NCBI RefSeq assembly: GCF_963921235.1
Contig: NC_086097.1
Coordinates: 156,862,001 to 156,926,000 of the forward strand
Source of the DNA: Mobula hypostoma
Lineage: Eukaryota
Direction: 5' to 3'
DNA: 64,000 nt
Shown: positions 6,143 to 54,290 of the stretch, piece after piece
Numbering within the stretch: position 1 is the stretch's first letter
Layout: every line of letters starts with the position of its first letter
The notes under the pieces: generated by a model
Database searches by the model: none
Told to the model about the DNA's origin: nothing
Seen by the model: the letters and a program-made list of their open reading frames with translations, nothing else
Program-made: the position numbers and the translations under genes

Positions 6143-6330
6143 CACAAGGAATTCTGCAGATGCTGGAAATTCAAGCAACACACATCAAAGTTTTTGGTGA
6201 ACGCAGCCGGCCAGGCAGCATTCCTAGGAAGAGGTACAGTCAATGTTTCTTACTCAGCCCAAAACGTCAACTGTACCTCTTCCTAGAGATGCTGCCTGGC
6301 CTGCTGCGTTCACCAGCAACTTTGATATGT
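6143..6330. mobile_element. Palindromic Penelope-like mini-insertion
   Basis: Inverted arms CACATCAAAG...GGTGAACGCAGC...GGAAGAGGTACAGT / ACTGTACCTCTTCC...GCTGCGTTCACC...CTTTGAT. 14-bp TSD GTAACTAGGGGAAA at 6129-6142 and 6331-6344. Confidence 0.8.
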
Positions 6331-22009: not shown

Positions 22010-22408
22010 CTGTTGGTGGACCTCGAAGGGCAGCTGAAGTTCCCTAACCATATCGCAGCCACCACCCTGCGACCAGACATTGTCCTAGTGTCTGAGGCTA
22101 CTAAGCAAGTGGTGCTGCTGGAGCTGACAGTCCCATGGGAAGATAGCTTGGAAGAGGCCTTTGAAAGGAAGCTCTCCAAGTATGCAGGACTGGTCAGCAA
22201 CTGTCAGCAGGCTAGTTGGAGAGCGAGGTGTCTCCCAGTGGAGGCTGGTTGTAGGGGATTCATAGCCCGTTCTTTAGTTAGAGCCTTCAGCATTTTGGGC
22301 TTCGATGGAGAGAGGAAGAGGAGAGCCATCCGCAGTACCACCGATGCGGCAGAGAGGGCCTCAAGATGGCTGTGGCTCAAAAGAGGGGAGCCATGGAGCC
22401 ATAAGTAG
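22010..22408 (+). pseudogene. HERO-type restriction-like (PD-D/E-xK) endonuclease domain, C-terminal fragment
   Basis: TTLRPDIVLVS...LLELTVPWE...ERKLSKY...PVEAGCRGF...AERASRWLWLKR. Frame is open but 5'-truncated. Confidence 0.88.
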
Positions 22409-22415
22409 CTAGCCA

Positions 22416-22533
22416 TCTGGACACAAGCTGGGGTCTGATCAGCCCTGGCTGGGTCACCTGGAGGAGGCTGTATGATGTTGAAAGACCCGAAACAGCCGAT
22501 GATTCCAGGAACATCACTGAAGATGTGTCCAGA
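22416..22533 (+). ncRNA. Predicted rearranged (non-circularly permuted) hammerhead ribozyme in the HERO 3' UTR
   Basis: CTGAAGA 22517-22523, GAAA 22489-22492, GTA 22470-22472. Perfect stems TGATGTT/AACATCA, GGCTGT/ACAGCC, GGGTCT/AGACCC, TCTGGACACA/TGTGTCCAGA. Confidence 0.65.
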
Positions 22534-23573
22534 AGCATCAACAGATGTATGTACACAGCATTCATTTATTATTATTGTTTTTTTTTATTTCCACAGTTCG
22601 TCTTCTTTTGCAAATTGTTTGCTTGTCAGTCTTTATGTGTAGCTTTTCATTGATTCTATTGTATTTCTCTGTTCTAATGTGCATGCCTGCAAGAAAATGA
22701 ATCTCTGGGTAGTAGATAATGACATATCTGTACCTTGATAATAAATTTAGTTTGAACTTTGAACCCACATAACCAGGGTGGACACAAGTCATTCATGCTT
22801 CCAAGAAACTGCCTAAGATGAAGTAGAATAGTGAAAGTCACAGTGTTCAACACACACACACACAGAGGTGAAAAAGCAGCTTCTTTCAGGGACTCATGGT
22901 ATTTCACTTTACAAGTGATTTCTGATAACATTTTATCATGACAGTTTCTACCCAGATAAAACAACATTCTGGTTTACTGTTTTATGATCTACTAAACTGT
23001 AACGAACCTTCAACATGACTGTCAGGAGAAGCATGTTACATTCCCCTAGCCTGCATTGAGACTGAAAACAATGTTGGCCACCCAACATATTCAAAATTAA
23101 GTAAGAGATTTTTTCCATAGATTTTTGTTCCATCCATAGATATTAGATGGAATATGTAATTAAAATTCTCCAACAATGACTAATTTGCAAAATGCTAAGC
23201 ACTAATTTCAATAGACTTCTAGACATCTGGAAAATTGAAAATGTCACTCCACTCATTAAGAAGGGAGAGAGGCAGAAGAAATGAAATTATAGGCCACTTC
23301 ACCTGACCTCAGTAGTTAAGAAGAATTAGAAGTCCATTGTAAGGGTTGAAGTGTTGGCACATACTAACACAGGCCAAAGTCAGCATGGTTTCCTTCAGGG
23401 GAAATCTTGTCTGACAAATTTTCTGGAATTCCTTGAGGAAATAGCAGGCAGGATAGACAAAGGAAAGTTAACGGATATTGTTCACTTGGATTTTCAGAAG
23501 GCATTTGATAAGGTGCCATACATGAGGCTGCGTAACAAGATAAGAGCTCATAGTATTACAGAAAATATATTAG

Positions 23574-42770: not shown

Positions 42771-42998
42771 CAAACAACAGGAATTCTGCAGATGCTGGAA
42801 ATTCAAGCAACATACATCAAAGTTGCTGGTGAACGCAGCAGGCCAAGCAGCATCTGTAGGAAGAGGTGCAGTCGATGTTTCAGGCCAAGACTAACAATAG
42901 TCCTGATGAAGGGTCTCGGCCTGAAACGTCGACTGCACCTCTTTCTACAGATGCTGCTTGACCTGCTGCGTTCACCAGCAACTTTGATGTATGTTGCT
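42771..42998. mobile_element. Palindromic Penelope-like mini-insertion
   Basis: About 90-bp inverted arms. 13-bp TSD TGAAAAATAATCT (42758-42770 / 42999-43011). Left arm nearly identical to 54156-54276. Confidence 0.88.
42899..42934 (+). ncRNA. Minimal type I hammerhead ribozyme of the Penelope terminal repeat
   Basis: AGTC-CTGATGA-AGGGTCTCGGCCT-GAAA-CGTC-GACT: intact core, stem I AGTC/GACT, stem II AGG/CCT, palindromic ACGT stem III. Confidence 0.75.
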
Positions 42999-54155: not shown

Positions 54156-54254
54156 CAAACAACAGGAATTCTGCAGATGCTGGAAATTCAAGCAACACAC
54201 ATCAAAGTTGCTGGTGAACGCAGCAGGCCAAGCAGCATCTATAGGAAGAGGCGC

Positions 54255-54290
54255 AGTCGACGTTTCAGGCCGAGACCCTTCGTCAGGACT
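54255..54290 (-). ncRNA. Minimal type I hammerhead ribozyme (CUGACGA variant)
   Basis: Minus strand AGTC-CTGACGA-AGGGTCTCGGCCT-GAAA-CGTC-GACT. Confidence 0.75.

Follow-up and report, generated by a model that had tools for sequence, protein, structure and literature searches.

A predicted hammerhead ribozyme with a rewired stem II in the 3' tail of HERO retrotransposons

The HERO copy in the window

The window, a stretch of 64,000 nucleotides, contains on its plus strand a 5'-truncated copy of a HERO non-LTR retrotransposon, of which the end of the ORF and the 3' tail are present. The tail carries a structured RNA. The element and the parts of this RNA are the following.

22010-22560, plus strand: 5'-truncated HERO non-LTR retrotransposon copy, ORF end and tail; 95% identity to the L066 copy (22010-22558), 3' end fixed in the family
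22010-22408, plus strand: C-terminal remnant of the ORF, which we take to be the restriction-like endonuclease region (RPD...ELTVPWE...K), with the stop codon at 22406-08; 91% identical to P0002
22416-22425, plus strand: P0 5' strand, pairing with 22524-33; 10 of 10 pairs compensatory, 90% paired
22426-22450, plus strand: P1 hairpin, adjoining P0 and stem II with 0 unpaired bases, loop palindrome UGAUCA at 22436-41; 93% paired
22451-22455, plus strand: stem II 5' strand, with G22451 in place of G10.1, coming from upstream and not from the CUGAnGA strand; 93.8% paired
22457-22465, plus strand: P3b 5' strand (22457-63) and predicted kink-turn bases G2n/A1n (22464-65), from alignment and covariation
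22466-22472, plus strand: stem III 5' strand, U16.1 at 22471, N17 at A22472, predicted cut 22472/22473, from the conservation of U16.1 and N17
22473-22479, plus strand: stem I 5' strand; 97.9% paired, 5 of 5 pairs compensatory
22484-22497, plus strand: block G, comprising the stem II 3' strand (22484-88), G12-A13-A14-A15.1 (22489-92) and the stem III 3' strand (22492-97)
22498-22509, plus strand: predicted kink-turn 3-nt bulge (22498-500), G1b/A2b (22501-02) and P3b 3' strand (22503-09); 26 of 33 representatives
22510-22523, plus strand: block C, comprising the stem I 3' strand (22510-16) and CUGAAGA, C3-A9 (22517-23); core columns 95-100% conserved
22524-22533, plus strand: P0 3' strand, directly after A9 and outside stem II; 47% pairing with 22484-88, first pair in 2 of 30
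22534-22560, plus strand: 3' tail, extending to where reverse transcription has its fixed start (about +86 relative to the cut); joins the 5' region in long copies

In longer copies the reverse transcriptase is recognised as Pfam RVT_1, with R2 proteins as the best PDB matches, and is followed by CCHC and PD..E..K motifs read from the translations, the latter presumably of the nuclease. The resulting layout, which was pieced together from ORF fragments of different broken copies, is that of the HERO clade, namely a single ORF with the reverse transcriptase preceding a PD-(D/E)xK restriction-like nuclease. The nuclease region was not recognised by Pfam or PDB searches, and no GIY-YIG nuclease was matched in P0002 or P0003. 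The closest named proteins come from a ray (88% identity), teleosts (80-82%), amphioxus (59%) and scallop (49%). The initial annotation had called the element HERO, and this label holds, since the HEROTn protein (in the part of the PMC7650587 supplement that gives it) has, by eye, a 30-residue identical run in common with P0002 and many shorter ones with P0003, by which the reverse transcriptase groups with the HERO references.

The unit length of the element is about 3.6 kb. Exact matches to the 26-mer that begins at the predicted cut number 1456 in the G000 genome, versus 0 for the reversed 26-mer. A very abundant unrelated repeat of about 80 bp is located at 6182-6326, 42814-42990 and 54199-54280 of the window and is also inserted in the L066 copy. 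Short HERO fragments within bacterial genome assemblies (L150-L152) are probably eukaryotic contamination.

Conservation and fold of the tail RNA

The region 22416-22533 was initially annotated as a hammerhead core with its strands in a non-circular order, with an extra helix. The five complementary pairs, CTGAAGA at 22517-23, GAAA at 22489-92 and the GTA triplet at 22470-72 are present as described, and the pattern as first drawn occurs once in the window versus 0 times in 100 shuffles. The hammerhead-like observation is thus real, with one helix misassigned.

A metagenome scan confirmed 252 relatives, of which the best 79 loci, with proteins 38-95% identical to the query, were used. The motif is found in the tail of 63 of these best 79 loci, 58 by a covariance model (4 of them only partial or weak matches) and 5 more by a descriptor. 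The other 16 gave no motif match: in 9 the sequence stops no more than 150 nt past the protein match, L075 has the first half of the motif only, L117, L118 and L138 have no match within their 235-501 nt of flank, and in L101, L136 and L147 the motif is absent. In sequences closely related to L117 and L118 the motif is located 570-680 nt downstream. Carriers occur on all main branches of the protein tree (a quick tree with midpoint root). As repeats may be assembled into chimeras in metagenomes, more weight is given to the G000 data; the counts on genomic copies cover those G000 families that are related to the queried sequences, apart from other HERO families of that genome. In L105, L107 and L123 the ribozyme lies 380-680 nt past the protein match, versus the usual 10-150 nt, and in L107 and L123 the kink-turn region and P1 deviate. 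One branch (L088:2190-2290 and L112:2131-2249) has UUGAAGA, with a C3U change in an otherwise intact core.

At least 100 nt of flank was available in 73 sequences, and CUGAnGA, GAAA and stems I and III served to anchor 50 of them. Positions 16.1 and 17 were left unconstrained in the anchoring, and 16.1 is U in 48 of the 50 while 17 is never G, in keeping with the cut predicted earlier after 22472. This U16.1-H17 site lies in exact register between stems III and I, as in hammerheads. Over 60 relatives N17 is A in 14, C in 24, U in 22 and G in 0, and over 33 non-redundant representatives A, C and U occur 11 times each; by contrast, 11 of these 33 have G as the linker base that follows stem II. 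The hammerhead core, C3-U4-G5-A6-N7-G8-A9 with G12-A13-A14-A15.1, is conserved at 92-100% per column in 60 relatives, with N7 free and mostly U. Mean conservation in the 62 matches that the model has outside G000 is 98% for the eleven core columns versus 58% for the others, a value that leans upward because the covariance model was trained on 30 of the sequences scored. The core is intact in 49 of 58 complete cores, and two of the deviations are C3U.

The partner of the strand preceding GAAA lies upstream, 19-20 nt from U16.1, in 40 of the 50 anchored relatives, and in 33 of 50 the gap between P0 and stem II is filled by a hairpin with 0 unpaired bases. A MAFFT alignment was made of the 30 best-parsed sequences, with the ends set from the parse, which favours P0. 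On this alignment 89.2% of the cells of the structure are paired and 35 of 40 pairs have changed on both sides; the covariation is 0.756 versus 0.223 when shuffled, and only 34-44% of cells are paired when the strands are slid. For the representatives, L141 (mis-anchored), L072 and L104 (both cut off) were dropped and 33 non-redundant sequences were taken from the 47 remaining rows; all four Watson-Crick types are found at most helix positions, and the paired fractions of II, P0 and P1 in this set are inflated, as their partners were chosen by best pairing. The check proposed at the outset, covariation of five helices together with an invariant core, came out positively for stems I and III (98% and 94% paired), for P0, which is the extra helix placed after CUGAnGA and compensatory in every pair, for the stem III extension and, at 98%, for the core; stem II as first drawn paired no better than when slid by one column. 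The core motifs are short, and a chance assembly might be suspected; it is scarcely credible, as the full set of five helices is present in 25 of the 50 anchored relatives versus 0 of 2000 shuffles and covariation extends across the 33 representatives.

The 5' strand of stem II had been assigned to GGGTCT at 22431-36, which sits in the conserved hairpin 22426-50. Its pairing with 22483-88 (57.5%) exceeds all 500 column shuffles but equals that obtained after a slide of one column (56.9%). The covarying partner is GGGTC at 22451-55 (93.8% paired, 4 of 5 pairs compensatory), and the linker between stems I and II is therefore 4 nt (22480-83) instead of the 3 nt first given. In the canonical arrangement the 3' strand of block C would pair with 22484-88, and this canonical stem II cannot form in HERO RNA: it is 47.3% paired, its first pair is found in 2 of 30 sequences, and A9 is not covalently continuous with 10.1, the canonical pairing being complete (4 of 4) in 1 of 50 relatives and in 2 of 50 with one inserted base. 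It is accordingly very improbable that the RNA adopts the fold first drawn, or an ordinary type-SGC fold through a switch that opens P0; the former has in its favour a 6-bp match in the window copy and the result of the column shuffles, but apart from its indifference to a one-column slide it would compete with P1, which is predicted at a probability of 0.87-1.0 for 8 of 9 pairs, and the latter is opposed by the poor canonical pairing.

A helix II closed by a G10.1-C11.1 pair does lie beside G12, with its G supplied by the upstream strand. The base equivalent to 22451 is G in 56 of 61 sequences and its partner is C or U in 57 of 60; stem II begins with a G-C pair in 27 and with a G-U pair in 3 of the 33 representatives, whereas in P0 and P1 the first pair is free to vary. 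According to PMC4209133, hammerheads typically have G10.1-C11.1, and natural motifs exist in which one base separates 9 from 10.1.

The order in the RNA is A9, P0, P1 and the 5' strand of stem II, which meet in a four-way junction with 0 unpaired bases. Covariation establishes the wiring of the core, P0, P1 and stem II as this perfect four-way junction, with stems I-III around an intact core. Stem II would be stacked on the A9-G12 pair as in ordinary hammerheads, so that only the backbone link is rewired, and P0 would be stacked on P1. The kink-turn would bend stem III back, and the far ends of stems I, II and P3b would meet in a three-way junction, with linkers of 1, 0-2 and about 4 nt, which would replace the contact between loops I and II. 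Minimum-free-energy folding is blind to stems I and II, which form pseudoknots. In stem III the window copy has a compensated C-G pair at 22468/22495, and the major G000 form has a U-C mismatch there (22468 is T in 70, G in 8 and C in 6 of 85 copies).

A kink-turn consists of a 3-nt bulge followed by tandem G-A/A-G pairs, located between a C-stem and an NC-stem, according to the part of PMC2952850 that defines it. This signature is present between stem III and its extension: 26 of the 33 representatives have the 3-nt bulge with A1n, G1b and A2b, whereas about 2 would be expected, and 23 of these 26 also have G2n. It is absent in 7 of 33, mostly from one branch. The kink-turn columns are G in 52 of 56 and A in 54 of 56 sequences. 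Binding of an L7Ae/15.5K-type protein and a kinked geometry would be predicted at this site.

The P1 loop is palindromic in 20 of 33 representatives (UGAUCA in 11, UGGCCA in 6, GACGUC in 2 and AGUACU in 1) and not in the other 13. On the tree the loop has switched between UGAUCA and UGGCCA two or three times, for instance between L135 and L089, which are closely related. The two central bases that change are neighbours, unable to pair with each other in cis; this points, as a moderate lead, to loop-loop pairing of two copies through the palindrome. The GACGUC palindrome was discounted, as it may be a GACG tetraloop common to non-palindromic relatives.

Partial tandem copies and the template of HERO elements

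In 28 of 30 unselected copies the insertion ends at +85 or +86 from the cut, and none of the 30 starts at the cut. Thus the cut does not define the inserted 3' end, and the simple 3'-end processing role initially proposed is not borne out, the ends lying about 86 nt downstream. In L031-L060 a CAG or ACA is often repeated at the 3' ends of insertions, at +86 to +89, which points to slippage or to the use of microhomology when reverse transcription begins.

The long copies are partial tandems, in which a truncated 3' end runs straight into a 5' region. In G000 the 20-mer spanning this 3'-to-5' junction has 145 matches, versus 158 for a 21-mer just inside the 5' region. Sixty loci with a 5' region were collected, of which 5 had no anchor and 9 were duplicates, leaving 46 scored copies; half of the long-copy loci came from a junction-spanning query, which favours tandems. 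These copies start between +103 and -796; 27 of the 46 pass the cut twice and 24 keep the whole upstream ribozyme. Not one starts within 3 nt of the cut, and there is no pile-up of 5' ends there.

Fifteen units of about 1 kb are internally deleted, with varied breakpoints, and L213 and L231 each carry their own breakpoint twice. These units (L044, L047, L053, L209, L211, L213, L221, L227, L229, L231, L232, L234, L240, L242 and L243) retain no less than 557 nt from the 5' part and 207 nt on the upstream side of the cut, and their sites of resumption recur at about -240, -278 and -289. Their 5' ends are variable, and L053 and L232 have one junction in common. Such units may be non-autonomous circles, which would map the sequence needed in cis.

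More than one unit is copied from one template. Both repeats were recovered in 26 of 30 insertions, and they have 33 minor alleles in common versus 11 expected, several of which occur in no other of the 47-85 sampled copies. The repeats within an insertion diverge by 0.8-13%, not consistently less than unrelated copies, which is expected after neutral decay and also limits the allele test. Gene conversion is a possible source of the shared alleles. Self-targeted insertion as the source of the tandems was considered unlikely in view of the shared rare alleles and the duplicated deletion junctions.

The relatives share this arrangement: of 49 loci, 10 have the 5'-region motif after the tail, and in five it is situated some 3.5-3.6 kb upstream; a second, upstream ribozyme is found in five contigs (L073, L080, L086, L087 and L109). 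The 3' ends are located 67-253 nt past the cut in 7 of the 8 pairs compared. The 5'-region motif (L061:6612-6760, and just past the tail in L077, L081-L084, L089, L095, L115 and L148) is conserved and non-coding, and consists of GUGAC repeats followed by small hairpins with GAAAGA or GAGAGA loops; it may act as a promoter, resemble an IRES or be an array of protein-binding sites. At L136:2749-3100 about 165 nt separate the end of the ORF from this motif, and they contain neither a hammerhead nor an Rfam match; a replacement ribozyme sought in L136 was not found. The two ribozymes of L087 (2226-2344 and 5950-6066) differ by many compensated changes and both have the UGGCCA loop, reflecting either a template switch between subfamilies or an assembly chimera. 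Upstream of the element in L205 the 5' repeat is adjoined by the element's 3' part in inverted orientation, as in the inverted copies of Penelope insertions.

The partial-tandem architecture points to tandem transcripts that are processed into a unit-length, probably circular template. The hammerhead would cut tandem HERO transcripts to unit length after N17, and the unit-length RNA would circularise, as has been proposed for Penelope-like elements and retrozymes. Reverse transcription would start about 86 nt past the cut and run more than once round the template. Mostly 5'-truncated copies would result, the window copy being one, and sometimes a copy of more than one unit, by which a competent master would be regenerated. 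As read from sequence, the RNA is a deeply conserved part of HERO elements and very probably a hammerhead of new wiring. That it cleaves appears highly likely; that the template is circular is a likely, somewhat less secure proposition, and the same holds for the reading as a whole, an active hammerhead of undescribed wiring that makes a unit-length HERO template. The ligase we infer, as we do stacking, kink-turn binding and dimerisation. Several observations speak against this reading: cleavage has left no direct scar in the genome, as insertions do not start at the cut; the major G000 form has a mismatch in stem III; the repeats of one insertion are not consistently more alike than unrelated copies; L136 has the 3'-to-5' junction and no ribozyme, and L101 and L147 also lack the ribozyme; the two ribozymes of L087 differ; and three of the 46 long copies start at the junction.

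A different origin of the tandems may be considered, in which the RNA is a non-catalytic docking or initiation structure that resembles or descends from a hammerhead, and the tandems arise by end-to-end template jumps on a linear RNA running from +87 to +86. Such a structure would be in line with the sequestration of the strand after CUGAnGA in P0, with a site that is uncut in every insertion and at which none starts, with the three of the 46 long copies that start at the junction itself, and with L136, which has the 3'-to-5' junction and lacks the ribozyme; the fold is also located immediately before the fixed 3' end, the place where, according to PMC6765202, proteins of the R2 type bind their RNA. 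However, it leaves unexplained the exclusion of G at N17, the free N7 and the retention of a G10.1-C11.1 pair by another strand. Furthermore, the 3' ends of insertions vary from +85 to +89 whereas the junction is identical in 145 matches, which indicates that the junction is templated and not made by jumps. A docking structure of this kind is therefore regarded as unlikely, and cleavage followed by circularisation as the better account.

After the cut, the 28 bp of P0, stem II, P3b and stem III would still join the products. This clamp would favour re-ligation and keep circles intact, and would make the first exchange of partners hard. Circularisation of a monomer needs strand exchange, because the 28 bp hold the products together, and this is the weak point of the circular model. 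The clamp could equally hold together the ends of a linear template, so that an active ribozyme would be followed by a reverse transcriptase jumping the nick. The R2 enzyme can reportedly continue across non-continuous templates (Bibillo and Eickbush 2002). Jumps at the nick appear quite improbable here, given that no copy in either set (0 of 30 and 0 of 46) begins at the cut and that no variable column is found at the cut among 85 copies.

Within the circular model a more far-reaching scheme can be sketched from the sequences, in which the 3.6-kb protein-coding HERO RNA would replicate as a circle through a hammerhead of new topology, with four blocks and a four-way junction at 9/10.1, the cage of which would favour reversible cleavage and ligation; host proteins of the L7Ae family might tune the ribozyme at the kink-turn, and loop-loop pairing of the P1 palindromes might align tandem ribozymes for strand exchange. 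In this combined form the scheme is tentative and rather doubtful. We know of no hammerhead with a four-way junction at 9/10.1 that is active.

Searches and comparison with known systems

Rfam gave no match at the gathering score in the window or in 20 relatives, only chance-level E-values. Viral contigs yielded one chance match and no protein relative; among them 37 pattern matches were found and no convincing model match (best E 0.023, with one stem III variant tried). Prokaryote genomes yielded 4 short fragments, none with the motif, and no RNA data set was listed among the sequencing runs that carry the sequence. In the openly accessible literature searched, no HERO ribozyme, HERO tandem, circular intermediate, or hammerhead with a four-way junction or a kink-turn was found; a prior description in Repbase Reports, subscription papers, patents or supplementary figures is possible. 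The parts consulted of PMC3088659, PMC7650587, PMC4640811, PMC13580325, PMC5753468, PMC3636483, PMC6765202, PMC3376415 and bioRxiv 10.64898/2026.07.22.740005 contain no mention of a HERO ribozyme, tandem or circular intermediate, and the term 'type-SGC' was found in one paper only (PMC10085705). A circular route in HERO elements is thus apparently undescribed.

If the RNA cleaves, it breaks the assumption behind the six permutations, that CUGAnGA is inseparable from a strand of stem II, and represents a hammerhead class missed by standard descriptors and by Rfam, with thousands of copies per genome across animals. A kink-turn would be added to a natural small ribozyme, and HERO would be an R2-type LINE on a Penelope- or retrozyme-like circular route. 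With a fixed start site and duplicated private junctions, HERO would then offer an unusually clean system for testing the old proposal that tandems of retroelements are reverse-transcribed from circular RNA. Gene insertion by R2-type proteins is under development, and an internal start on a circular template would be of practical interest.

The nearest known relatives of the fold are the type-SGC hammerheads. In the portion of PMC10085705 (Eckert 2023) concerned, hammerheads are divided into blocks called S, G and C, it is assumed that CUGAnGA cannot be parted from the stem strands beside it, and type SGC is validated in vitro. The order cleavage strand, GAAA strand, CUGAnGA strand of the initial annotation is confirmed and corresponds to this published S-G-C order. 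The type-SGC hammerheads described there (HRIMA-1 and variants) have in common with HERO RNA the block order, a short linker between stems I and II, an intact core and pseudoknotted helices. In type SGC, however, a stem II strand directly follows CUGAnGA, whereas in HERO that strand forms P0 and the 5' strand of stem II is a separate upstream block; type SGC would require stem II to be built from the 3' strand of block C and the 5' strand of block G, and this is not the case in HERO RNA. In type SGC, as set apart by the legend and text, an extra helix joins the free sides of stems I and II, where HERO has P3b and a three-way junction instead. Type SGC was found beside hairpin ribozymes in metatranscriptomes, and no example from HERO or from fish appears in the consulted parts of the article and its supplement. 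The wiring predicted for HERO is outside the published six permutations.

As regards the elements, Penelope-like elements (in the relevant parts of PMC4209133 and PMC11167929) resemble HERO in their partial-tandem copies, a hammerhead in the repeat, and reverse transcription that starts internally and, as proposed, runs for more than one unit on a circular template; for a Penelope protein the internal start has been shown (PMC11167929, in the same part). They differ in having a telomerase-like reverse transcriptase, a GIY-YIG nuclease and minimal type I hammerheads, while HERO has an R2-like reverse transcriptase, a restriction-like nuclease and a 118-nt caged ribozyme. In animal non-LTR retrozymes, as outlined in part of PMC7229834, a hammerhead cuts tandem transcripts, the monomers are circularised (mostly by RtcB, in vitro) and tandem cDNA has been proposed. 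These retrozymes are non-coding, 170-400 nt long and equipped with type I hammerheads, in contrast to the autonomous 3.6-kb HERO element. The 5' HDV-like ribozymes of R2, L1Tc and RTE, according to a section of PMC6765202, are self-cleaving RNAs that free a non-LTR element out of a longer transcript, as is predicted for HERO; their cut defines the 5' end of a linear template, whereas in HERO the cut is never the start of an insertion and the motif is located 86 nt from the 3' end that is inserted. Within the HERO clade itself (HEROTn, HERO-1_BF and HERO-1_SP), the reverse transcriptase has its runs in common with HEROTn, and insertion is non-specific, as described in the part of the clade's literature covered.
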